Positions 2,893 to 60,759 of a DNA stretch of 60,759 nucleotides are shown one piece after another. Under the pieces are notes generated by a model that saw only the letters and a program-made list of their open reading frames with translations, searched no databases and had not been told where the DNA came from. Each line of letters begins with the position of its first letter. Positions within the stretch are counted from its first letter, which is position 1. The position numbers were made by a program, and so were the translations under genes. This stretch comes from an uncultured Dehalococcoidaceae bacterium (GTDB taxonomy: Bacteria > Chloroflexota > Dehalococcoidia > Dehalococcoidales > RBG-16-60-22). The stretch lies in NCBI GenBank assembly GCA_964545815.1, contig CAZJGR010000002.1:1-60759 (forward strand), in the 5' to 3' direction.

Positions 2893-2930
2893 CCGCCCCC
2901 TGGACTTATCCTCATAAGTCCAGGGGGCGG
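2893..2930. repeat. perfect 17-bp hairpin CCGCCCCCTGGACTTAT-cctc-ATAAGTCCAGGGGGCGG
   Basis: Arms at 2893-2909 and 2914-2930 are exact reverse complements. Belongs to the outer-arm family. Confidence 0.9.
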
Positions 2931-5857: not shown

Positions 5858-6190
5858 TTACTGGCCGTCCCAACTATCACGAATCCGCTTGACCACCTCC
5901 TCTCGTATGCCGTGAATAGCAAAAGCCTCCGCCAGCCGTTGGACTGGCGGGCAGGAGCCGTCCAGGATGATCGCTTTGAACCAGACCTGATCGGAGATAC
6001 ACAAGAGCGACTGCACCTCCCACTGCCGGTGCCTCATCGCAATTAACACCTGCGCCTGCGCCTCGTTCTCGGCCAGTACCACGACCTGGAGGCATATTAA
6101 GGCCCCACGGCGCGGCTCAAAACTGGTCAAGACGGCGACATATAGATGGAGAGGGGTAATCTGTCTCTCGATAAGGATGTTATTCACCAT
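5858..6190 (-). CDS. hypothetical protein (110 aa)
   Basis: Trimmed to ATG 6190 (MVNNILIE) behind GGAAGGGGG. Confidence 0.55.
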   Translation of the reverse strand: MVNNILIERQITPLHLYVAVLTSFEPRRGALICLQVVVLAENEAQAQVLIAMRHRQWEVQSLLCISDQVWFKAIILDGSCPPVQRLAEAFAIHGIREEVVKRIRDSWDGQ

Positions 6191-6779
6191 GCCATACCCC
6201 CTTCCGCCGTCCATGCGAAGCGGACCCCAGGACATAGACCTTTAACTCCGGCTTGTATACCTGGAGTACGCCTCCCCGTTGAGGATGCGGCCGGGCATGG
6301 ATATAAGCCTGCTTGACCAGGTAACAAATGTGCGCCTCGGTTAGCTCGGTCAACCGCACTGCCTCCCGAACCGTGATCCAATTCGGGTCCTGGACCATAG
6401 CCTCCCTGACCAGCGTCTCGTGGGTTGGCATCAATACCACTACCTCCCGCAGAAGACCCTCAAGACGACGCCTGCGAACCGCGCCTCGCAACTTCCGCAA
6501 GGCCGCCGCCTCAATCTGCCGTACCCGTTCCCGAGTGATCCCCAGGAGAAGCCCGCACTCGTGAAGGGTCAGTCCATCCCCGAACCGGTAGATGACAACC
6601 AGGGCGTGCTTACTAGGCAAGCCCCTCACCCCTTCCAAAAGACACCCCTGGAGGGCGTCACTCCAACCCTGTTGTTCTCCGGCCCATGTGGCCTGTTGAT
6701 TGCCGGGGACGAACCCGCCGTGCGCCAACCGATAGACCAGCGCCGGGTTACGGACCGCGTTCATAATGCTGCTGCTCAT
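6180..6779 (-). CDS. sigma-70 region-4-only protein fused to an excisionase/MerR-type HTH
   Basis: LVVIYRFGDGLTLHECGLLLGITRERVRQIEAAALRKLR closely matches sigma region 4.1-4.2. No region 2/3 is visible. C-terminal WITVREAVRLTELTEAHICYLVKQ looks like an HTH_17-type helix-turn-helix. ATG behind AAAGGAG. Confidence 0.8.
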   Translation of the reverse strand: MSSSIMNAVRNPALVYRLAHGGFVPGNQQATWAGEQQGWSDALQGCLLEGVRGLPSKHALVVIYRFGDGLTLHECGLLLGITRERVRQIEAAALRKLRGAVRRRRLEGLLREVVVLMPTHETLVREAMVQDPNWITVREAVRLTELTEAHICYLVKQAYIHARPHPQRGGVLQVYKPELKVYVLGSASHGRRKGVWHGE

Positions 6780-19509: not shown

Positions 19510-19807
19510 CCACCCCTCCCCTTGTTCCGGCCTCTGGACTTGTCTTGACAAGCTCAGAGATAGTCAACGGCCTGACCAGATAGTGACCGGGTGCAACGTA
19601 CTTACACGCATGAACAGCCAGACCCTCCGGCGACTGAAACCCATCAGCAGCCGCGGGCGATAACCAGACCATCGAGAGCCAGCGTCCAATCTTTCTTTTG
19701 AATTGCACACACAGGTCGGCGATCACTTGCTCGATCTGCCGGCCGCTGTTGTCCCGATAGAGTACGCTCGAGGGCAGACCACTAGCTATCCTGCCTCCGC
19801 TTTTCAA
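19499..19807 (-). CDS. doubtful ORF (102 aa)
   Basis: TTG start and no clear SD. Its 3' end runs through the hairpin at 19532-19559 and the next gene's SD. Confidence 0.25.
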   Translation of the reverse strand: MKSGGRIASGLPSSVLYRDNSGRQIEQVIADLCVQFKRKIGRWLSMVWLSPAAADGFQSPEGLAVHACKYVAPGHYLVRPLTISELVKTSPEAGTRGGVDEA

Positions 19808-20018
19808 AAGTACACCCCCTCCAAAAGTACACCCAGGTATACCTGTTTTGCCCTAACCAGTAGGGCCTTTTGCTCACTTCCCTACTAGATATAAGCGGCC
19901 GCAAATGCCGGCGTACCGTTTGCACCGAACATCCAACAGCAAAGGCAATATTCTTCGATGTGATGGGCCAGTTGTGCCGCTGGAGAAAACTGGCTATCTC
20001 AGCCTGATAACTTTTCAT
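19782..20018 (-). CDS. winged-HTH protein (78 aa)
   Basis: ITSKNIAFAVGCSVQTVRRHLRPL. ATG behind GGAGGTG. ATGA overlap with the upstream gene. Confidence 0.7.
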   Translation of the reverse strand: MKSYQAEIASFLQRHNWPITSKNIAFAVGCSVQTVRRHLRPLISSREVSKRPYWLGQNRYTWVYFWRGCTFEKRRQDS

Positions 20019-20309: not shown

Positions 20310-20525
20310 TTACCGCCTCTTTGCTCCTATCCATTGATAGATAGCCTGCCCCCTCTGTCCATACCAGGCAGGAAGGTTTTTAACTACCCCCGCCCGGACG
20401 AGCCTGCGAAGGCAGTGATAGACCGTTGACTTTGAACAGCCCACCTCCAGAGCGATGGTTTCCGCCGTCCAAAACCCGTCGTGCCTCTTGAGAAACGCAA
20501 CGACATCCATTAAACGGCTTCTCAT
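20310..20525 (-). CDS. winged-HTH protein (71 aa), paralog of 19782..20018
   Basis: Trimmed to ATG 20525 behind GAGGAGG. WTAETIALEVGCSKSTVYHCLRRL. Confidence 0.7.
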   Translation of the reverse strand: MRSRLMDVVAFLKRHDGFWTAETIALEVGCSKSTVYHCLRRLVRAGVVKNLPAWYGQRGQAIYQWIGAKRR

Positions 20526-20576
20526 CAGACTACCTCCTCGTCGGCCAACGCAATTGTCAGCCAACAGTGCCCCTTA

Positions 20577-21344: not shown

Positions 21345-21656
21345 TCACCCCATACTCACCTCCTTGCCCTCATCGGCTAACATGATTGTAAGACCACATA
21401 AGCCGCCCTCAGCGATGCGACCCACGATCTTAACGGGCAGAAACTTTTGAGACCCGAACCGAACATGGAACGGGATAACCAGGCCCGGGTCGAGCATGTC
21501 CTGTTTGAGATAGTCACGAATAGCCCGCCTGGCCTGGCGCAACACAACCCTGACCCGCTTTCCTAACCCTGGCCCTTGCAGGACCTCGACCAGCCTGGCC
21601 GAGAACTTGACCGGATAATTGAACCGCAACCCCTGAGCCGCCTTTGTGACGTCCAT
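21345..21656 (-). CDS. hypothetical protein (103 aa)
   Basis: ATG 21656 shares its A with the TAA stop of the upstream membrane-protein gene (TAATG coupling). Confidence 0.55.
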   Translation of the reverse strand: MDVTKAAQGLRFNYPVKFSARLVEVLQGPGLGKRVRVVLRQARRAIRDYLKQDMLDPGLVIPFHVRFGSQKFLPVKIVGRIAEGGLCGLTIMLADEGKEVSMG

Positions 21657-22498
21657 TAAGTCTTTTCCCCTACCAGACAGCCTGCCGTGGCCAGCACCGG
21701 CCATAGACTGAAAATACCGAAGTAAGGGCTGATCAGAAGCCCCAAGAGTAAGCATAGCCAGACCTCCCTGCGGAAGCACTGGACTTTGCTTGCTAACCAC
21801 AGAACAGGGACAAGCCAGAGAAGCGAGAACGGCCCCAGGAGCCTCCACAAGCTGGCGTTCCAACCCATGTTCATACTGCCGGCAACCTGCAACCCCTGGA
21901 CAAACGGGACGATCCACCACTGCCCTGTTAGTAGATAGTCGGCAAGAGTAGTCACTACCCCCATCATGAAGGGGACGAGCAATGCGCGACGCATCCCGGG
22001 CCAGAAAGCTACCATAAGGAAAAACATCAGGCAGGGGACCCAGGCCAGCTGCGGCTTGAATAGCATTAAGGCCATCCCCGAACCTACCCAGTCCCATCGG
22101 GAGGGCACATACTCCCATCCCAATAAGGCCAGCGTTAGACCGGCCAGAAATACCGCATCGAAAAGGTGCCCGTAGACCAATGCCGGCAAGAAGACCGGGC
22201 TAAGAAGCACAACCCAGGCAGGAGTCCGCCAGACCTTACATGCCCACAGGCAGACCAGGATGTCAATCAGCCAGACCACGATCAGCGCCACCTCCCGAGG
22301 CAGGAGCCCCAGGAGCCGCAAGACCCAGGTGCACGGTACGGGGTACCAGTACCGCGTCACCGAGTACGGTTGCAGAGTCCTCCCGGCCGGCCAGAGGTGC
22401 ACCGAGAAATCGTCCCTGCCCGTTGGCAAGACCATGATCACCATGGCCACCAGCAACCCCAGGGCGATACCCCACTCGATTGCCTTGCTCATGCTCAT
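21656..22498 (-). CDS. polytopic membrane protein (~9-10 TM), possibly GT-C/DUF2029-like glycosyltransferase
   Basis: Hydrophobic segments run throughout. The family call is a weak impression only. Confidence 0.7.
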   Translation of the reverse strand: MSMSKAIEWGIALGLLVAMVIMVLPTGRDDFSVHLWPAGRTLQPYSVTRYWYPVPCTWVLRLLGLLPREVALIVVWLIDILVCLWACKVWRTPAWVVLLSPVFLPALVYGHLFDAVFLAGLTLALLGWEYVPSRWDWVGSGMALMLFKPQLAWVPCLMFFLMVAFWPGMRRALLVPFMMGVVTTLADYLLTGQWWIVPFVQGLQVAGSMNMGWNASLWRLLGPFSLLWLVPVLWLASKVQCFRREVWLCLLLGLLISPYFGIFSLWPVLATAGCLVGEKT

Positions 22499-22824
22499 AA
22501 GGCCCTCCAGATTACCCTCGGTGGGTCCACGTCGTCCCTAAACAAAGCCATACTTTCATCCGGGCAGGGCAGGGGCTTGTCTTCGCCTACACGAGGCAGA
22601 GCAGACGGCATCCGATACAGACGGGCCCCTTGCCATTCCTCAACCTTCTCCATGTTTTCGACCCCCAGGACGACCTTTTTGACCGCCGCATTGAAGCCGA
22701 GAGCGTCGCATACATCGGCCAGGACGAGCAATACCGGCGCCTCTGTTTCTGCCAGGTTTGCGCCGTCTTTTTCCAGGTCCTCCCGTAGACGGCGTAACCC
22801 CTTAAGCATACCCAAATAGTCCAT
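22495..22824 (-). CDS. hypothetical protein (109 aa)
   Basis: ATG behind AAGGGGG. Confidence 0.6.
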   Translation of the reverse strand: MDYLGMLKGLRRLREDLEKDGANLAETEAPVLLVLADVCDALGFNAAVKKVVLGVENMEKVEEWQGARLYRMPSALPRVGEDKPLPCPDESMALFRDDVDPPRVIWRAL

Positions 22825-22862: not shown

Positions 22863-23114
22863 TTACCGGGCTTGAGGAGGGGCTTCCTTGACCGCCTCTT
22901 TCTCACTGGTCAGTCGGGCTTCGTATTCGTTCATCGCTTTGGTCAGGACCCCAATGTCCTGCCGGCCCAACCACTCATCCACAAGCCCCCGAACGATCTC
23001 CGCAACAGATAGTCCTCGCGCCAGGCAGACCAGCTTTAGCAAGCGATGGGTCTTTACAGAGACCGGGATAACAAGCACTGATTGAGATGACCTCTTGACT
23101 CTTTGCTTTGGCAT
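22863..23114 (-). CDS. ribbon-helix-helix (CopG/Arc-like) regulator
   Basis: SVLVIPVSVKTHRLLKLVCLARGLSVAEIVRGLVDEWL. First gene downstream of promoter 23148-23176. Confidence 0.75.
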   Translation of the reverse strand: MPKQRVKRSSQSVLVIPVSVKTHRLLKLVCLARGLSVAEIVRGLVDEWLGRQDIGVLTKAMNEYEARLTSEKEAVKEAPPQAR

Positions 23115-23134
23115 GTACCCTTCCCTCCCTTATA

Positions 23135-23147
23135 AGTACTATGTACT
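23135..23147. promoter_or_regulatory. operator-like palindrome AGTAC-TAT-GTACT over the leftward transcription start
   Basis: Exact 5-bp arms. Also reads as tandem GTACTAT GTACTAT (23136-23149). Confidence 0.6.
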
Positions 23148-23176
23148 ATTGTATCACAAACCACTGTTCTTGTCAA
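23148..23176 (-). promoter_or_regulatory. sigma70-type promoter P-L2 (TTGACA-17-TGaTACAAT)
   Basis: On the minus strand, -35 is at 23176-23171 and -10 at 23153-23148. 17-nt spacer with TGn. Confidence 0.75.
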
Positions 23177-23219: not shown

Positions 23220-23243
23220 CTGAATTTATCATGATAAGTCCAG
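23220..23243. repeat. 24-bp element CTGAATTTATCATGATAAGTCCAG (core palindrome TTATCATGATAA)
   Basis: Exact reverse complement of 56930-56953. Ends 5 nt before the -35 of the late promoter. Confidence 0.9.
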
Positions 23244-23248
23244 GGCGC

Positions 23249-23277
23249 TTGACAAAATGTACCAACGGGAGTATACT
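23249..23277 (+). promoter_or_regulatory. sigma70-type promoter P-late (TTGACA-17-TATACT)
   Basis: -35 at 23249-23254, -10 at 23272-23277, spacer exactly 17 nt. Confidence 0.75.
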
Positions 23278-23470
23278 AGGATGCAAGGGATGGTGTACCT
23301 TGCCCGCCGTCCCTCGTACCCCCCTTGGATTGGGGCGGCTCTGCGTGTCGGACGGGCCTGCACCGGAGGCCGCCCCTGGCTAACCCGTATGCGCAAGGCT
23401 GGTCCGAGCCCCACCCGCCCCTTCGTCTCTCTTTGGCCAGGGCCGGCCTTGCGCAGTGACAGAGGAAAGG

Positions 23471-24394
23471 ATGACAATACTCAAGCATGTCCCGTTAAAC
23501 AGTATGCAGGACCACCCCCTGAACGCTCATGCCGTTTCAGAGAAGGACCGAAAGAAGATTGCTAACAACATCCGGCGTACGGGGAAATATCCGCCCTTGA
23601 TTGTCAGAGAACTGACAGAGTTGTCCGAGTACTGGCCCGGCGCACCAGGACACTACCAGATACTGGACGGCCACCAGCGCCGTTTGATTTTTGAAGACCT
23701 GGTGGCTGAGGGCCTGACTCAGTTCGAGCAGGTGGCCGTTGACGACTGGTCACCCCTGACCGATGACGAGGCCCTGATCGCACTGGCTACCCTTAACACC
23801 TGGGGCGACAATATCCCACGTAGACGCGCCGAACTCCTCCATGCCATTCTCAAGACCGTTGAACTGCAAGAAGCCGCTAACGTCCTCCCCGAAGATGTCC
23901 ATGCCATCACCGATGCCGTTAAACTCCTCAAACAGCCCCTGGCCGATATACAACGCCTGATTGACGAAGCCCAACGCCCTGACGAGATAGCCATCAGTTT
24001 TGTACTGAGCGCATCCCAAAAATCGGCCCTGGCCAAGTTTACGGCGGCCATACAACTTTTTGCCTCCTACTACGGGGCAGACATGGTCAAGGTTGAAGTA
24101 AAGGAAGGCGGAGAACATGGCCGCGTGGTTGTCTTGACTTTTAACCTGGTCAATGCCGCTCACACGCTGGTGGAGGAGGCCATCCGGCGCGCCTCGGAAG
24201 AACTACCCCCAGGAGGTAAGAACCGGCGAGGACAGGCCCTGGAGGTCATAGCCGCACAGTACCTGGCTACCGCATTGAAATGGAAAGACCAGGTCGACAT
24301 AGAACCGGTAGAAACGGAACGCACCGCCCCACCTCCTGCCAGGCGCAAGCGAACCCGCAAACCGGTGCCTGAAATCGCCATCGCCGCATCCTGA
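23471..24394 (+). CDS. ParB-like nuclease-domain protein
   Basis: YQILDGHQRR (ParB/Srx DGHHR-type motif). Trimmed to ATG 23471 behind GAGG. Confidence 0.8.
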   Translation: MTILKHVPLNSMQDHPLNAHAVSEKDRKKIANNIRRTGKYPPLIVRELTELSEYWPGAPGHYQILDGHQRRLIFEDLVAEGLTQFEQVAVDDWSPLTDDEALIALATLNTWGDNIPRRRAELLHAILKTVELQEAANVLPEDVHAITDAVKLLKQPLADIQRLIDEAQRPDEIAISFVLSASQKSALAKFTAAIQLFASYYGADMVKVEVKEGGEHGRVVVLTFNLVNAAHTLVEEAIRRASEELPPGGKNRRGQALEVIAAQYLATALKWKDQVDIEPVETERTAPPPARRKRTRKPVPEIAIAAS

Positions 24395-24417
24395 ACTTAT
24401 CAAGGAAAGGCCAGAAC

Positions 24418-26781: not shown

Positions 26782-28474
26782 CCTGCTGGCTTATTACGGC
26801 CATTCGCGCCCGGTAAGCTTACTGGCCTGGGCCCTGACCTATCGCGCCCTGGACGGCCACCCCTTCACCCTGGATAAATACCCGTCCAGTGTAGCACTTT
26901 ACAAAGACGAAGCCCCCTTTATCGTCGTAGAGAAACCTAACCAGGTAGGAATTTCAGAGTGGCTTATCAATACCGCCCTCCATGCGCTGGATATGGGGGC
27001 GGGCTATTTCGGGATTGAACACCTGAAAAAAAGCCTGAACGTAGGCTACATTTTTCCTACCTGGATAGCCCTGCGGGATTTTTCCAAAGACCGCGTCCGA
27101 AGAATCGCTCTGGAAACCGGGTATCTGTCCGCCCTCTTGGCGCCGGTGCGAAAGGCCGGCTCCCTGCGACGGGAAAGCGACCTGGGGCTGTACTTCATAC
27201 GAGCAAGCGCACTTTACCTGCGAGGCGCGCACCGGCCCGATGAACAATTGGCCTCCTTTCCCGTAGACATCCTCCTGGTGGACGAGTACGACCTGATCAC
27301 TCTGCGGGCCATCGCCCTGGCCGAGAAGAGGTTGAGGGCCTCCCCCCTCCGGCTGAAACGATACATCTCCAAGCCGACCTTGCCTAATATGGGGGTTGAT
27401 AAACTCTACCAGGAGAGCGACCAGCACCAATGGGAAATCCGGTGTCCCACCTGCGGGGACTGGCAACCGCCCGATTTTTGGGACAACGTGTTCCTGGTGG
27501 ATAGGGGGAAAAAGCTACCTTATGCAGAGTGGTCGAAACGGGACCGCAACGACCTCCTGCAAAGCTGTTTTGAGTTTGCCTGCCGCCGTTGCCAGACGCC
27601 CCTGCACCATATCAGTCCTGGCCGCTGGCAACCCCAAAACCAGGGAGCGCCGATCAGGGGCTATCGTATCCCTGGCCTGGTCAGCCCTTACGTTCCTTTA
27701 ATAGAGATAGTTAAGGGCAGCCTGGCCGAGGAGCCGGACATCCTCCTGGAATGGTACAGAGCTGACCTGGGCCTGCCCAAAGCCCCGGAGGGCGGGCAGC
27801 TAAAGTGGGACGATCTCCAGGCTTGCCAATCCGCCGACTGCCACCTGCAGCAGAGAGCCCACCGTTGCACCATGGGTGTAGACATCGGAGTCAATCTCCA
27901 TGTCCGCGTGAGTTCGTACCAAAAGGGAACCTGGCAAACCGTCTGGATAGGAGAGGTAGACGAGTTCGAGCAGCTAGACGAACTCATGACCCGCTATGAA
28001 GTCCGGGCCGCGGTCATCGATGCCCTACCCGAAACCCGGTCGAGTAGAAATTTTTGCCTGCGCTGGCCGGGACGAGCCTGGATGGCCTACTACTCTGACA
28101 CCCAAAAAGAGGTCTATGTCTGGAAAGACCCGCCAGAGGGAGAACGACACAGAGAGGCGGGCAAGGTGCTAATCACCCGCACCGAGGCGATGGACCGCGT
28201 GGCCGCCAACCACCGGGAGGGGAAGGACGTCCTCCCGCTTGAGGCCCATGCCGTCCCAGGGTTTTTCAGACACCTGTGCGCGCCGGTGCGCGTAATGACC
28301 ACCAGAACCAAAACGGATGGAACCCACTACAGTGTAGCCGTCTACCTGGAGAGCGGACCGGACCACTACTATCATGCCAGCGTTTACGAGCTGGCGGCCA
28401 GGGAGCGACTCAAGCCGGCATTGCTGAACCTGACGGCCGGCATAACCACTGAGCAATCCGCCTTTGAGGTCTGA
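26717..28474 (+). CDS. terL: terminase large subunit (lambda GpA-like)
   Basis: EKPNQVGISE (Walker A-like), ILLVDEYD (Walker B), CPTCG...CRRCQ Zn-finger as in the GpA family. TTG 26717 behind GGGAGG (alternative ATG 26741). Confidence 0.8.
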   Translation: MTLSQLWFMQQHQQLTRDQAVDLLAYYGHSRPVSLLAWALTYRALDGHPFTLDKYPSSVALYKDEAPFIVVEKPNQVGISEWLINTALHALDMGAGYFGIEHLKKSLNVGYIFPTWIALRDFSKDRVRRIALETGYLSALLAPVRKAGSLRRESDLGLYFIRASALYLRGAHRPDEQLASFPVDILLVDEYDLITLRAIALAEKRLRASPLRLKRYISKPTLPNMGVDKLYQESDQHQWEIRCPTCGDWQPPDFWDNVFLVDRGKKLPYAEWSKRDRNDLLQSCFEFACRRCQTPLHHISPGRWQPQNQGAPIRGYRIPGLVSPYVPLIEIVKGSLAEEPDILLEWYRADLGLPKAPEGGQLKWDDLQACQSADCHLQQRAHRCTMGVDIGVNLHVRVSSYQKGTWQTVWIGEVDEFEQLDELMTRYEVRAAVIDALPETRSSRNFCLRWPGRAWMAYYSDTQKEVYVWKDPPEGERHREAGKVLITRTEAMDRVAANHREGKDVLPLEAHAVPGFFRHLCAPVRVMTTRTKTDGTHYSVAVYLESGPDHYYHASVYELAARERLKPALLNLTAGITTEQSAFEV

Positions 28475-28497
28475 GCTTTGTAGGAGAAGCCCAGAGT

Positions 28498-41478: not shown

Positions 41479-41502
41479 CTGAGCTTATCAGGATAAGTCC
41501 AG
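41479..41502. repeat. outer-arm hairpin CTGAGCTTATC-ag-GATAAGTCCAG
   Basis: 11-bp arms with 2 mismatches. Confidence 0.7.
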
Positions 41503-53486: not shown

Positions 53487-53530
53487 CTGGACTTATCCTG
53501 ACCTGCCTGACGACAGGCGGGTAAGTCCAG
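53487..53530. repeat. nested element CTGGACTTA...CCTGCCTG-acga-CAGGCGGG...TAAGTCCAG
   Basis: Exact 9-bp outer arms. Confidence 0.9.
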
Positions 53531-54738: not shown

Positions 54739-56499
54739 ATGACCATCCGCCCGCTGGCCGACCGGTGGGGAAGGCTCAGAAACTTTAGCTTTTCTTCCGA
54801 GACTGAGCCGACCCAAACCTGGCCCGGCTGCACCTGGATAAACCCGGCCACCGGAGTCATCCGCGTGCGCAACGCGGCCGATAGCGCCTGGGTTGTAGCC
54901 GGAGGTGGTACGGCCGGACCCCATCATGAGAACCATGAAAACGGAGGCGATGACGAGGTCAACGTCGCCGGGCTTTCGGGAGTCCTGGCCGACCCACAAA
55001 CGCCGGCCGCTCATCATGGCTCCCACGAAAACGGCGCCGGCGATGAAATCAGCGTCGCCGGACTTTCGGGAGAACTGGCCGACCTCCAGCCGCCCAAGGC
55101 CCACGACCATTCGGACGCGGCGACACAGGGCGGCCAGAACTTGCGGCAGATTCTTGAGTTGGAAATGGAAAACGCCACCGTCCTGGTCCCTGTCGCCGGA
55201 GTTATCACCCGAACTCAGACATACCACCGAGTAGACCCTGACGGTGGCAGTGCCGACCTCCACACCATCCTCGGGGGAACCGAGGGCGACATCCTTTTCT
55301 TGCAACCCCTGGGCTACGCCGATATCGTCCATGTATTGCAGTACCAGATACCAGGCAACATCATGCTCACCCGGCTTCAAAATGCCGACTTGCTCAAGTG
55401 GCAAATCGCAGGATTTATCTACGATGGCACGTGGTGGCACGATTTTAGCTGGATTGGAATCAAGACCCATAACCACACCAGCCTTGCCGAGGGCAGCGTA
55501 CTACTCCATGCAAACCTGTCTGGTCTTGGGAATGATGAACACACCCAATACCTCAAAGAAAAAGCGTCGGGAGGTACAGCAGCGGAGATACCGGTCCACG
55601 CCCACACCTCGGCCGATGAAGGTGGCATATCGCCTGGGCGCAACCAATTGACCAATGGCGGCCACGAGCTCTGGCAACGAGGAGCCGGAGCCTTCACGGC
55701 GAACAACGCCTACTGCGCTGACCGCTGGCAAATTTATCTGGCCGGCACCGATACGCTCTCTATAACCAGGAGTGCCACTAAGAAAACCAACTCGCTCTAC
55801 GCCTCGGCCTGTGCCTTTGTCCTCGGCAACGGCGCAGGGGCGACACAGTACCAGCAGAAGCTGGTCATCTCCACCAGTGACGAGTACCACCACCTGCTGG
55901 GCCAGGTTGTTTCTCTGACCATCTCGGTTAAGCTATTGGCCGGTGTAGCCAGCGCCGTCCGCTCTTTTATCACCTACGATGGGACGGGCGGGGCAACGAC
56001 TTATAGCAGCTATCATGGCAATAACACCGATTGGGAAGACCTGACCGTCCTCAACGTGACCGTGCCGACTGATGCGACTTATGTCCTGGTTGGCGTGGCC
56101 CTTGCCGCCTCCTGCACAGCCTACATTGATAACTGCGCCCTGACCCTGGGGCCACAAGCGCCGGTCTACGAGGGCGAGCACCCCGCCGAGTTGTGGGACA
56201 GATGCCAGCGGTACTATGAAATTCAGGCCGGGACGGTAGGAGGGCAGCCCTGGGTCGTAAACAACAATGGCGGTGCCGCAGGTTACATCGCGTGCTCCCC
56301 CGTCTTTACAACCCGTAAAACAGTGGCTCCTACGATGACCAAAAGCGGCACCTGGATCGTGAATAAAGTCGGCCAACCCGTCGCCAGGGCCAGCAGCGTT
56401 ATCGGATATAACCTCTATGCACAAATTTCGAGTGCGGGGAATCAATACTTTCAACCCGATAGTGTAGATGACACCGTAACAGCGGAGGCCAACCCATGA
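54739..56499 (+). CDS. tail fibre protein
   Basis: Trimmed to ATG 54739 behind GGGAGGGA. Tandem His-rich units HxNHENGGxDEVxVAGLSGxLADxQ. Confidence 0.75.
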   Translation: MTIRPLADRWGRLRNFSFSSETEPTQTWPGCTWINPATGVIRVRNAADSAWVVAGGGTAGPHHENHENGGDDEVNVAGLSGVLADPQTPAAHHGSHENGAGDEISVAGLSGELADLQPPKAHDHSDAATQGGQNLRQILELEMENATVLVPVAGVITRTQTYHRVDPDGGSADLHTILGGTEGDILFLQPLGYADIVHVLQYQIPGNIMLTRLQNADLLKWQIAGFIYDGTWWHDFSWIGIKTHNHTSLAEGSVLLHANLSGLGNDEHTQYLKEKASGGTAAEIPVHAHTSADEGGISPGRNQLTNGGHELWQRGAGAFTANNAYCADRWQIYLAGTDTLSITRSATKKTNSLYASACAFVLGNGAGATQYQQKLVISTSDEYHHLLGQVVSLTISVKLLAGVASAVRSFITYDGTGGATTYSSYHGNNTDWEDLTVLNVTVPTDATYVLVGVALAASCTAYIDNCALTLGPQAPVYEGEHPAELWDRCQRYYEIQAGTVGGQPWVVNNNGGAAGYIACSPVFTTRKTVAPTMTKSGTWIVNKVGQPVARASSVIGYNLYAQISSAGNQYFQPDSVDDTVTAEANP

Positions 56500-56915
56500 A
56501 CATCTCAACCAGGAACAAGGACGACACGATCACTTTCTGCCAGGGGATGCACATCTACACAGTGGACCTCAAGACCCTGGCCTTCGGCAAGCGATTGACC
56601 GATAGCAAGGAGAAGCCCACAGAAGTCGTGTTCGAGGGTGAGATATTTTGCATCCGCCCTGATTGCCCGGCCTGTGCCGCCGCCGCCCAGGAACACGGCC
56701 TCCCGGGCTACAAGGTTCCCGTTCACTCCATAGCCTGGCCCATCCTGGGCGATATCGAAGCGTTGGAAATCCACCTGCGCCATAGGATGCAGAAGGGGGG
56801 AAAGAATCTTGAAACCGCTATCACCGAAATCGAACCCTACCTGCCAGATACCTACGCCCGCGCCCGCTTGCAAGAAGCCGTCAAAGAAGTCCGGAAAGCC
56901 CCGCCTACCCTTTAG
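56496..56915 (+). CDS. hypothetical protein (139 aa; fibre chaperone?)
   Basis: ATGA overlap with the fibre gene. Confidence 0.55.
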   Translation: MNISTRNKDDTITFCQGMHIYTVDLKTLAFGKRLTDSKEKPTEVVFEGEIFCIRPDCPACAAAAQEHGLPGYKVPVHSIAWPILGDIEALEIHLRHRMQKGGKNLETAITEIEPYLPDTYARARLQEAVKEVRKAPPTL

Positions 56916-56929
56916 GTAGTCCGCCTGTT

Positions 56930-56953
56930 CTGGACTTATCATGATAAATTCAG
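56930..56953. repeat. 24-bp element CTGGACTTATCATGATAAATTCAG
   Basis: Reverse complement of 23220-23243. Ends 11 nt before the -35 of the next promoter. Confidence 0.9.
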
Positions 56954-56964
56954 TGCAGGACCTA

Positions 56965-56993
56965 TTGACAGAAACCCCTTTCTGTGCTAAAAT
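56965..56993 (+). promoter_or_regulatory. sigma70-type promoter P-rep (TTGACA-17-TGcTAAAAT)
   Basis: -35 at 56965-56970, -10 at 56988-56993, TGn extended -10. GTGCTAA (56984-56990) and TTAGCAC (57009-57015) form inverted repeats bracketing the transcription start. Confidence 0.75.
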
Positions 56994-57028: not shown

Positions 57029-57349
57029 ATGCACGATCCCATAAAGCTCATGCAGGGCCGCTCAAAGCCCATCAACGTGAGCCTGACCACTAACTTGGAA
57101 CAGGCTCTGCGAGCGCAATCCCGCAAAGAGAACCGGCCTATCTCCCGCATTGTCCGCCTGGCCGTTCTCCACTACCTGATCGCCCGGGACCGGCCGCCCA
57201 GGGAGGAACTCCATGACCACGGCGAGGAGTGTGAATACCAGGAACACGACGGCACTTTCTGTGCATGGGCCTGGGAGTCCTGCAACGGCCCGACCGATGG
57301 GTGCGGTTTTTTTCCAAGACGTCCCCGAAAGACCGTAGATGAGAATTAA
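57029..57349 (+). CDS. ribbon-helix-helix protein
   Basis: PINVSLTTNLEQALRAQSRKENRPISRIVRLAVLHYL. Confidence 0.7.
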   Translation: MHDPIKLMQGRSKPINVSLTTNLEQALRAQSRKENRPISRIVRLAVLHYLIARDRPPREELHDHGEECEYQEHDGTFCAWAWESCNGPTDGCGFFPRRPRKTVDEN

Positions 57350-59838: not shown

Positions 59839-60156
59839 ATGCCGATTAAGGACCCTGACCTTTACCCGCCCGACTGGTGGCGAATCAGCCTGCAGGAGCG
59901 TGTGAACAGCGGCTGGCGCTGCCGGTTTTGCAGGGCCGAACAGGGAGAACCGCACCCGGTCACCGGCTCCAGAGTAGTCCTGACCGTGGCTCACCTGGAC
60001 CACAACCCGCAAAACAACGACCCGGACAACCTGGCGGCTTTGTGCCAAAAGTGTCATCTGGCCTACGATCAGCAGGAACACCTACACCACGCCGCTCAGA
60101 CCAGGCGAAGAAGGAAAGTGGAAGCCGGGCAACTAGAGCTATTAGAGGCCCCATAG
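59839..60156 (+). CDS. HNH endonuclease (phage packaging-associated type)
   Basis: CRFC...VLTVAHLDHNPQNNDPDNLAALCQKCHLAYD. Trimmed to ATG 59839. Confidence 0.85.
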   Translation: MPIKDPDLYPPDWWRISLQERVNSGWRCRFCRAEQGEPHPVTGSRVVLTVAHLDHNPQNNDPDNLAALCQKCHLAYDQQEHLHHAAQTRRRRKVEAGQLELLEAP

Positions 60157-60220
60157 CTCAAATGGGAGAGCAACGGTCTCCAAAACCGTGAGGTGAGGGT
60201 TCGAGGCCCTCTGTGGGCCG
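60147..60220 (+). tRNA. tRNA-Trp (anticodon CCA)
   Basis: Manual fold gives: D arm GCTC/GAGC; anticodon arm ACGGT-CTCCAAA-ACCGT; variable loop GAGGT; T arm GAGGG-TTCGAGG-CCCTC; G discriminator. The acceptor stem GGCCCCA/TG(T)GGGCC needs one bulged base. Overall close to bacterial tRNA-Trp. Confidence 0.7.
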
Positions 60221-60387: not shown

Positions 60388-60759
60388 ATGGAAGCGACTG
60401 AGAAACTTGAGAGGTCATGGGCAATTGTAGAACTGTTTGGCCATCAGAAGATAGCGGGACAGGTAGAGGAGACCTCTATCTTGGGTGGTGGCTTTCTGCG
60501 GGTAGACGTTCCTGGAGATGGGGCAGAGGTCACCTTTACCCGTTTCTACTCGAAAGAAGCGATCTACAGCCTGACCCCTGTCAGCGAGGACGTCGCTCGC
60601 CTGGCGGCCAAAGAACTCCAGACCAGACCTGTCACGGTCTGGATTCCCACGGCCCGTTTCCTGCCCGCCCACCCTACCCTGCCTCCTGCCTGTGCCCCGG
60701 AAGAACTTGATGACTACGAGGAACCTGATGATTACGAGGAGGGCTGGCAATACTACTAC
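60388..60759 (+). CDS. conserved phage protein, 3'-truncated by the window end (>=124 aa)
   Basis: ATG 60388 behind GGAAGGGAG and open to the last base. SWAIVELFGHQKIAGQVEE..GGGFLRVDVP resembles a widespread phage family of unknown function. Acidic DDYEE repeats at the C-terminus. Confidence 0.65.
   Translation, partial: MEATEKLERSWAIVELFGHQKIAGQVEETSILGGGFLRVDVPGDGAEVTFTRFYSKEAIYSLTPVSEDVARLAAKELQTRPVTVWIPTARFLPAHPTLPPACAPEELDDYEEPDDYEEGWQYYY

Follow-up and report, generated by a model that had tools for sequence, protein, structure and literature searches.

Short sites that recur many times on one replicon have been described in plasmids and in phages. The KorB operators (OB) of the IncP plasmid RK2 are palindromes that lie either 4–10 bp upstream of -35 boxes or far off, and they co-operate with KorA operators overlapping the -10 hexamer (PMC11790492). 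The repressor of L5-type (Cluster A) phages has more than 20 operator and stoperator copies, placed in promoter regions and short intergenic spaces; these are 13-bp asymmetric sites, each bound by a monomer and strictly aligned with the direction of transcription, and at the promoter the two sequences overlap (PMC9283540). Cluster O mycobacteriophages carry more than 30 copies of a 17-bp dyad repeat, TGTTCGGNNNCCGAACA, many of them between genes or near gene ends (PMC4351075), and related Cluster K phages keep their ESAS repeats at homologous genes (PMC3203893). Here we describe a 24-bp element, CTGAATTTATCATGATAAGTCCAG, found on the plus strand at positions 23220–23243 of a 60,759-nucleotide stretch of DNA (contig CAZJGR010000002.1, hereafter the window) and again, as the exact reverse complement, at 56930–56953, in each case just upstream of a consensus promoter. 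The window, a tailed-phage genome of 58% G+C, is an entire 60.8-kb contig of a 1.64-Mb, 118-contig assembly. We put at about 0.5 the probability that the two copies are binding sites on double-stranded DNA for a phage-encoded regulator of both control regions, which would probably be a repressor of these strong promoters; that a protein binds them, that it originates from the phage and that it represses is what we infer from the conservation and placement set out below.

Judged by analogy, KorB-OB of RK2 appears to be the closest mechanistic counterpart. In both systems palindromes are repeated on one replicon, some directly upstream of a -35 box (here by 5, 7, 8, 10 or 11 nucleotides (nt)) and others tens to thousands of bp from promoters (the contig has about 20 further copies); the promoters concerned are strong and contain a second class of operator (here probably the repeated boxes in the spacer and at +1); and a ParB-family gene on the same replicon adjoins a site. 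The phage site differs in its length (24 bp with conserved outer CTG/CAG triplets, versus 13–16 bp), in the prevalence of copies in intercistronic gaps beside ribosome-binding sites and in its replicon, a tailed phage rather than a conjugative plasmid, and the phage ParB-like protein, unlike KorB, has DGHQRR in place of GERRxR and an ACT-like C-terminal part. The L5 stoperators likewise occur both at promoters and, in many copies, in short intergenic spaces genome-wide, a likeness suggesting that one protein might govern initiation and elongation across the genome; by contrast, our family motif is dyad-symmetric, at promoters it stands before the -35 box, and only the promoter subclass is asymmetric. 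The Cluster O repeat resembles ours in being a dyad with invariant arms and a variable centre, in genomes with strong SigA-type promoters, but differs in sequence and host, and none of its descriptions includes a promoter-linked subclass or a fixed spacing to the -35 box (PMC4351075). The Cluster K ESAS is tied to a 13-bp start-associated sequence and is not reported upstream of promoters (PMC3203893), whereas the copies flagged here are promoter-linked, in spacers that are probably untranscribed. As multi-copy elements with conserved arms and a variable centre, mostly at gene boundaries and at homologous positions, the family fits the dispersed dyads of Clusters O and K, which are descriptive classes only. 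Noc-binding sites and the parS sites of ParB-family proteins are also short palindromes dispersed on a replicon, and the structure model of the phage protein is closest to a Noc–DNA complex; the sequence motifs differ, and the likeness lies in the model and the palindromes.

A conserved element upstream of two consensus promoters

A first-pass annotation of the window, made from its sequence, had reported the inverted repeat, and it proved exact: the copies agree at 24 of 24 positions, contain the perfect 12-bp palindrome TTATCATGATAA that the annotation had also recognized, and have no match of any kind in 100 dinucleotide-preserving shuffles (chance expectation zero). The distances of 5 and 11 nt that it gave to TTGACA -35 boxes hold as well (gaps 23244–23248 and 56954–56964), and the promoters to which those boxes belong, P-late and P-rep, each match 11 of the 12 sigma-70 consensus positions and are the only such plus-strand sites in the window. 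A third strong promoter points leftward, with 43 nt between its -35 box and the A/T-rich arm of the P-late copy, which thus stands between divergent promoters; the leftward one serves a small ribbon-helix-helix (RHH) gene at the start of a long leftward operon. The P-rep copy follows the stop codon of the gene at 56496–56915 by 14 nt. Matches and synteny with relatives assign to the P-late operon a ParB-like gene, a D12 methyltransferase, a GpA-type terminase, a Mu-type portal, capsid and tail genes, including a 2203-amino-acid protein that we take to be the tape measure (its counterpart in one relative, sc97, matches PF10145); behind P-rep come an RHH gene, an O-like initiator and a DnaC-like loader. 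Gene calls in the window are crude, over-long choices of open reading frames (ORFs).

Syntenic relatives were reached through homologues of the ParB-like protein (45–60% identity). One of them, scaffold_97 of ENA assembly ERZ23498930 (sc97), was followed to 44 kb through loci L004, L061, L062 and L063; the others are L006 and L007, the JGI contigs L012–L020 and, through homologues of the O-like initiator, L010 and L064. Viral contigs scanned with one protein at a time, the ParB-like or the O-like, returned no match, nor did a search for DNA similarity between the window and isolated phages. Both control regions are available from two genomes only, the window and sc97.

At P-late, the element is present in nine related contigs (all those relatives with sequence upstream of the ParB-like gene), as ten copies of the form CTAAATTTAT-N5/6-WAAGYYCAG between the leftward and rightward promoters. 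Its columns in the alignment (A2) are invariant like the -35 and -10 hexamers, and the spacers are variable, with indels: the rightward -35 box follows the element after 5, 7, 8, 10, 11, 19, 29, 30 or 30 nt, and 42–43 nt separate the A/T-rich arm from the leftward -35 box in six of eight sequences. One contig (L012, 2853–2938) has two tandem promoter-linked copies upstream of P-late, 38 nt apart and both with the core TTATCATGATAAGCTCAG.

At P-rep, the window, sc97 (L063), L010 and L064 align without gaps from the element through the -10 hexamer (A3). The element ends exactly 11 nt before TTGACA in all four genomes, and in all four the RHH gene that follows is homologous. In sc97, L010 and L064 this copy, too, lies between divergent promoters, with the leftward -35 box at 5, 26 and 19 nt, respectively; to judge by the sequence around them, these three copies have no upstream transcription unit, and no transcript should cross them. 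The opposite orientations of the two copies, already remarked on in the first-pass annotation, are a conserved trait, the A/T-rich arm being distal at P-late and proximal at P-rep in every genome, and at both sites this arm faces the RHH-led operon.

Because the same two positions, the orientation, the A/T-rich arm and the P-rep spacing are kept among phages whose proteins are only 20–60% identical, the position of the element appears to be under purifying selection, and a conserved dyad at a fixed or near-fixed distance upstream of strong promoters points to a protein site on duplex DNA. The earlier proposal of a shared activator or repressor site thus holds as to placement, given the homologous elements in nine contigs at P-late and four genomes at P-rep, but its activator half is the less plausible one. 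With 11 of 12 consensus positions, both promoters should fire unaided, which makes repression likelier than activation, and an activator that depends on one fixed helical face is rejected at P-late by the wide range of spacings there. An extended -10 promoter borne by the element itself (TGnTAAATT, reading out of the A/T-rich arm) was also considered and set aside, as it fits only two of the four P-rep copies and six of the ten P-late copies.

A dispersed intergenic family and its promoter-linked subclass

The 24-mer is one member of a family, CTG-N3-TTA-N6-TAA-N3-CAG, that numbers about 20 copies on the contig and fills most of the intergenic gaps. Short forms read CTGGACTTA-N6-TAAGTCCAG, and long forms hold the same arms 25–47 nt apart around inner hairpins. 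The window has 18 occurrences of the arm CTGGACTTA, versus 3 in the remaining 1.58 Mb of the assembly; neither the 24-mer (with up to five mismatches) nor the pattern CTGRRYTTATCAKGATAAGTCCAG is found on any other contig of the 1.64-Mb assembly, and CTGGACTTA-N6-TAAGTCCAG has no exact match among IMG/VR viral contigs. Although only 10% of the contig is non-coding, 13 of 22 element centres lie there (P ~3e-8), and in the rightward operon the elements occupy the gaps between stop and start codons. Allowing one mismatch at most, the loose motif occurs 2–9 times per 10 kb in the loci of this phage clade and not once in ~330 kb of other fetched loci, a set that includes loci with distant ParB homologues; because of this difference, we regard the family as a trait of the clade. 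Homologues of the 599-amino-acid gene upstream of P-rep, tried as another lead to relatives, were modular tail-fibre fragments, in loci outside the motif-bearing clade (L008 and L009).

Intercistronic copies often contain, in their CTGA..., the TGA at which the preceding gene stops, and reach to within 1–4 nt of the next ATG, as do the window copies at 24391–24414 and 28471–28494 and those at L004 11615 and 13596, L006 15329, and L007 11039 and 14995. In such cases the element is the whole spacer, and an AAGG/AGGA-like stretch inside it is a possible Shine-Dalgarno sequence.

The two flagged copies form part of a specialized, asymmetric, promoter-linked subclass of this genome-wide intergenic family. 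When every copy is oriented with its A/T-rich arm first, 12 of 13 promoter-linked copies have three or four A/T at arm positions 3–6, versus none of 46 intercistronic copies with more than two A/T at these positions in either arm. The centre TCATGA is common to many promoter-linked copies.

An A/T-rich arm near a promoter could also act passively, as an UP element or a phased A-tract (curved DNA) that stimulates transcription through the alpha subunit of the host RNA polymerase without any phage protein, in which case the likeness to the rest of the family would reflect common descent. At P-rep of four genomes the A/T-rich segment occupies about -46 to -59, which falls in the UP-element zone of Escherichia coli promoters; A/T tracts follow one another every ~11 bp to the left of the P-late copy in the window and its relatives, and such sequences stand out against a genome of 58% G+C. 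At P-late, however, the A/T-rich arm is the distal one: a tract at about -40 to -60 is present at P-rep of the four genomes and at P-late of the window, but in four relatives (L013, L016, L018 and L020) the element stands 19–30 nt from the -35 box, and in relatives the arm comes to lie at about -75 to -90, beyond the UP range. Neither the CTG/CAG and TTA/TAA triplets nor the dyad symmetry would be explained, and the promoters are already at 11 of 12 consensus positions. We consider passive stimulation unlikely.

A hairpin acting in RNA or single-stranded DNA, as elsewhere in the family, is a second alternative that we hold to be improbable; the element would then be a stabilizer of mRNA 3' ends, a processing site or, as the first-pass annotation had allowed, a terminator or insulator, and its proximity to promoters would be incidental, both living in intergenic gaps. 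The P-rep copy does follow a stop codon closely, most family members occupy stop-to-start gaps with more than half of all centres in the scarce non-coding sequence, copies in the leftward operon form strong hairpins (-24 to -32 kcal/mol) through G+C flank extensions that differ from copy to copy yet remain complementary, and the long forms retain their arms around inserted inner hairpins. The flagged copies, on the other hand, have A/U-rich stems of only -7.2/-8.4 and -12.3/-9.2 kcal/mol; neither is followed by a U-tract, a terminator scan of the plus strand called no site at either, and a search of the whole window against Rfam matched a tRNA at 60147–60219 alone, with nothing at the element sites. 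In a set of 42 copies taken from relatives, pairing at the free arm positions 4–6/19–21 has frequencies of 0.48, 0.36 and 0.45, as compared with 0.49, 0.38 and 0.45 in shuffled columns, so the triplets are conserved but compensatory changes are not seen in the arms. Because the triplets are conserved while the free positions pair only at the shuffled level, the motif appears to act as a recognition sequence and not as a structure. Copies between divergent promoters (in nine of nine contigs at P-late, and at P-rep of sc97, L010 and L064) and the constant 11 nt at P-rep are likewise not what a terminator would lead one to expect, and we reject the reading as a terminator or insulator. Base composition is mirror-symmetric among copies oriented by transcription, which leaves the motif without intrinsic polarity; a KOPS-like polarity signal for an FtsK-like motor was dropped for this symmetry.

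Could the pair be functionless, a selfish or neutral palindromic repeat of the MITE, REP or RPE kind newly copied into both gaps? The 24/24 identity ends exactly at the element boundaries with unrelated flanks on either side, it ranks first among 78 pairwise comparisons of the window's family copies (next best 22, median 19), and within the assembly copies are confined to this contig. The two promoter copies of sc97 match each other at only ~16 of 24 positions by hand count (and the window 24-mer at 21 and 19). Because of this lower match, the identity seems dispensable for site function and most likely reflects recent copying or gene conversion in this genome rather than a functional requirement. 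Homologous copies nevertheless hold the same two positions in phages with 20–60% identical proteins, with orientation, A/T-rich arm and P-rep spacing preserved, which makes a functionless pair very unlikely.

Table 1. Features of the window discussed in the text. Positions are those of the window.
Feature	Position	Strand	Remarks
Promoter-linked 24-bp element, P-late copy	23220..23243		A/T-rich arm CTGAATTTA leftward; family-type arm TAAGTCCAG 5 nt from -35
Promoter-linked 24-bp element, P-rep copy	56930..56953		A/T-rich arm 11 nt from P-rep -35
P-late	23249..23277	+	TTGACA-17-TATACT
P-rep	56965..56993	+	TTGACA-17-TAAAAT with TG before -10
Leftward promoter of small RHH gene	23148..23176	-	TTGACA-17-(TG)TACAAT
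Small ribbon-helix-helix protein, candidate binder	22863..23114	-	Weak ParG match; weak homology to sc97 RHH protein; leads leftward operon
Ribbon-helix-helix protein with Cys/His-rich tail, candidate binder	57029..57349	+	First gene after P-rep
ParB/Noc-like protein, candidate binder	23456..24394	+	First gene after P-late; family copies on both flanks (23220, 24391)
Closest other family copy, CTGAGCTTATCAGGATAAGTCCAG, 3 mismatches	41479..41502	+	Intercistronic; 2 nt past stop codon, 12 nt before tape-measure start codon
Intercistronic family copy	24391..24414	+	CTGA gives TGA stop of ParB-like gene; CCAG 3 nt before methyltransferase ATG
Intercistronic family copy	28471..28494	+	Spans terminase stop codon to ATG of second methyltransferase
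Leftward-operon family copy	2900..2923		Perfect palindrome with 7-bp complementary G+C flank extension; hairpin -31 to -32 kcal/mol
Long-form family member	53487..53530		CTGGACTTA and TAAGTCCAG as outer arms, 26 nt apart with inner hairpin; between convergent genes

Two further observations concern the window itself. A minus-strand ORF at 56505–56942, whose ATG falls at the palindrome centre of the P-rep copy, was judged spurious: its G+C content at third codon positions is 0.58 versus 0.74 for the plus-strand ORF that it overlaps, and the latter overlaps its own upstream gene by ATGA. The 15-mer GAGGAGGGCTGGCAA at positions 1–15 recurs at 60733–60747, 12 nt short of the contig end, with no clean terminal overlap.

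Candidate binders and possible modes of action

Candidate binders are encoded beside both sites, namely the RHH proteins and the ParB/Noc-like protein, and we consider the two RHH proteins as plausible as the ParB-like one. Further candidates encoded in the window are wHTH proteins (19782–20018 and 20310–20564) and a sigma-region-4 protein (6180–6779). The ParB-like protein matches a PHROG ParB-like family (E 1.3e-8) and no Pfam family. In its structure model, a ParB/Srx N-domain and a helical middle precede an ACT-like beta-alpha-beta C-terminal domain; the best Foldseek match is a Noc–DNA complex (7ol9_B, E 2e-6 over 168 columns), followed by sulfiredoxin. The motif ILDGHQRR is invariant. 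Among isolated phages, homology is limited to Thermus phages P23-45, P74-26 and G20c, and there to the first 82 residues of their ParB-like proteins, and distant homologues are located in metagenome-assembled genomes of Dehalococcoidia, which hints at this class as the host group.

If the elements are operator-like sites, a dimeric or tetrameric phage DNA-binding protein would occupy one in each control region, that of the late and small RHH genes and that of replication (in relatives also that of immunity), and would repress or silence intrinsically strong promoters, tying late and replication transcription to one regulator. It might do so by contacting or excluding the C-terminal domain of the RNA polymerase alpha subunit or, alternatively, by acting together with proteins that occupy operators within the promoters, as KorB does on RK2. 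The upstream element would add to the local boxes a further level of control, common to both regions. Such boxes can be seen in relatives (L012, L013, L018 and L020), where TAGGCA recurs within the spacer of P-late and at +1, and forms the inverted repeat TAGGCAnnTGCCTA next to the leftward -35 box; their counterparts in the window are GTAC(T/C)A boxes (23130–23160 and 23255–23266). These are probably local operators of the divergent promoters whose specificity has changed in the window.

A more specific version, which we regard as rather unlikely, is that the candidate ParB/Noc-like protein loads at the ~20 sites and, from just before the -35 boxes of P-late and P-rep, silences these two strong promoters, possibly acting at intercistronic sites too, as a KorB-type network in a tailed phage or phage-plasmid; the asymmetric subclass with its A/T-rich arm would then mark two master control regions.

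Several points weigh against a shared operator bound by one of these proteins. The replication RHH protein does not co-vary with the site: that of L064 is 20% identical to the window protein, yet the core TTATCATGATAA is the same, and that of L010 is closer (34%), yet its site diverges most. This speaks weakly against the replication RHH protein as the binder. The model of the ParB-like protein is of moderate confidence only (mean pLDDT 66.5), and the protein carries DGHQRR where ParB proteins with a CTP clamp have GERRxR. The spread of 5–30 nt at P-late leaves no general stereospecific contact with RNA polymerase there, and the A/T-rich arm could be just an UP-like or curved-DNA feature. Finally, the long forms and the flank extensions of the leftward-operon copies both point to a single-strand structure in at least part of the family.

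Relatives also show how the neighbourhood of the element varies. In sc97, the P-rep element stands 5 nt upstream of a leftward TTGACA-17-TATGAT promoter, an echo of the 5 nt at P-late of the window; this promoter belongs to the gene of a cI-like repressor (HTH_19/HTH_31; L063 17575–18162) divergent from the replication promoter. No homologue of this repressor was found in the window, for which reason it was rejected as the binder of the family, and tail-fibre-like genes lie upstream of P-rep where sc97 has the repressor; because of this difference, the immunity or lysogeny set-up must vary within the clade. A third class of consensus promoters in relatives, leftward in direction (L006 ~4414, L007 ~3726 and L010 ~2145), has a different palindrome, TAGTACTAAAGTACTA, abutting the -35 box and lacks the 24-bp element; by implication, the leftward early leader promoter has a regulator of its own.

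Downstream of P-late comes a G+C-rich leader of ~130–280 nt that is not translated (window 23284–23455, L004 6180–6306, L006 9860–10000). In sc97 and L006 the ends of this leader pair (GAGAGGCGACCGG ... CCGGTCGCCTCTC), and a T-run lies just 5' of the start codon of the ParB-like gene. A strong constitutive promoter followed by a terminator in the leader would resemble lambda PR'-tR' under antitermination control.

A centromere-like site (parC or parS) of a plasmid-prophage partition system, its dispersed copies acting as in phage N15, is highly improbable, although the gene arrangement invites the comparison: in relatives, the small RHH gene directly left of the element is followed at once by a gene for an ALP_N/MreB-like (ParM-type) ATPase (L004 4698–5777), a ParB-like gene lies on the right side, and the distance to the leftward promoter is 42–43 nt in six of eight sequences. 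The window, however, keeps the element while tblastn finds no homologue of this actin-like ATPase at 21345–22824, a region of ORFs without Pfam matches, two of which (21345–22118 and 21656–22498) overlap in different frames. Type II centromeres such as parC of R1 and pSK41 consist of direct repeats in an array, whereas the site here is one palindrome (two tandem copies occur only in L012), and the ~20 intercistronic copies and fixed P-rep spacing would have no explanation. It is scarcely credible that the copies are inverted recombination sites at which a site-specific recombinase flips the 33.7-kb late segment, for all that they are identical inverted 24-bp dyads and L010 has a gene for a large serine recombinase close to its P-rep element: no relative examined departs from the shared gene order and element orientation, the sc97 pair agrees at just ~16 of 24 positions, the central dinucleotide AT is symmetric, and ~20 further copies would also be substrates.

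Implications for the phage clade

The clade is known from metagenomes alone. The element offers a concrete 24-bp probe together with a short list of candidate binders, and culture of the host should be unnecessary because consensus sigma-70 promoters should be readable by E. coli RNA polymerase. As a dispersed intergenic repeat that has specialized into a promoter-linked, operator-like subclass, the family may bear on the unexplained dyad repeats of Clusters O and K. If the ParB/Noc-like protein were the binder, the result would be a KorB-type global silencing network in a phage of an uncultured, probably Dehalococcoidia, host. More generally, if one phage protein reads the motif, then a ~60-kb phage would have its late expression, its replication (in relatives its immunity as well) and perhaps all of its intercistronic junctions linked through one regulator.

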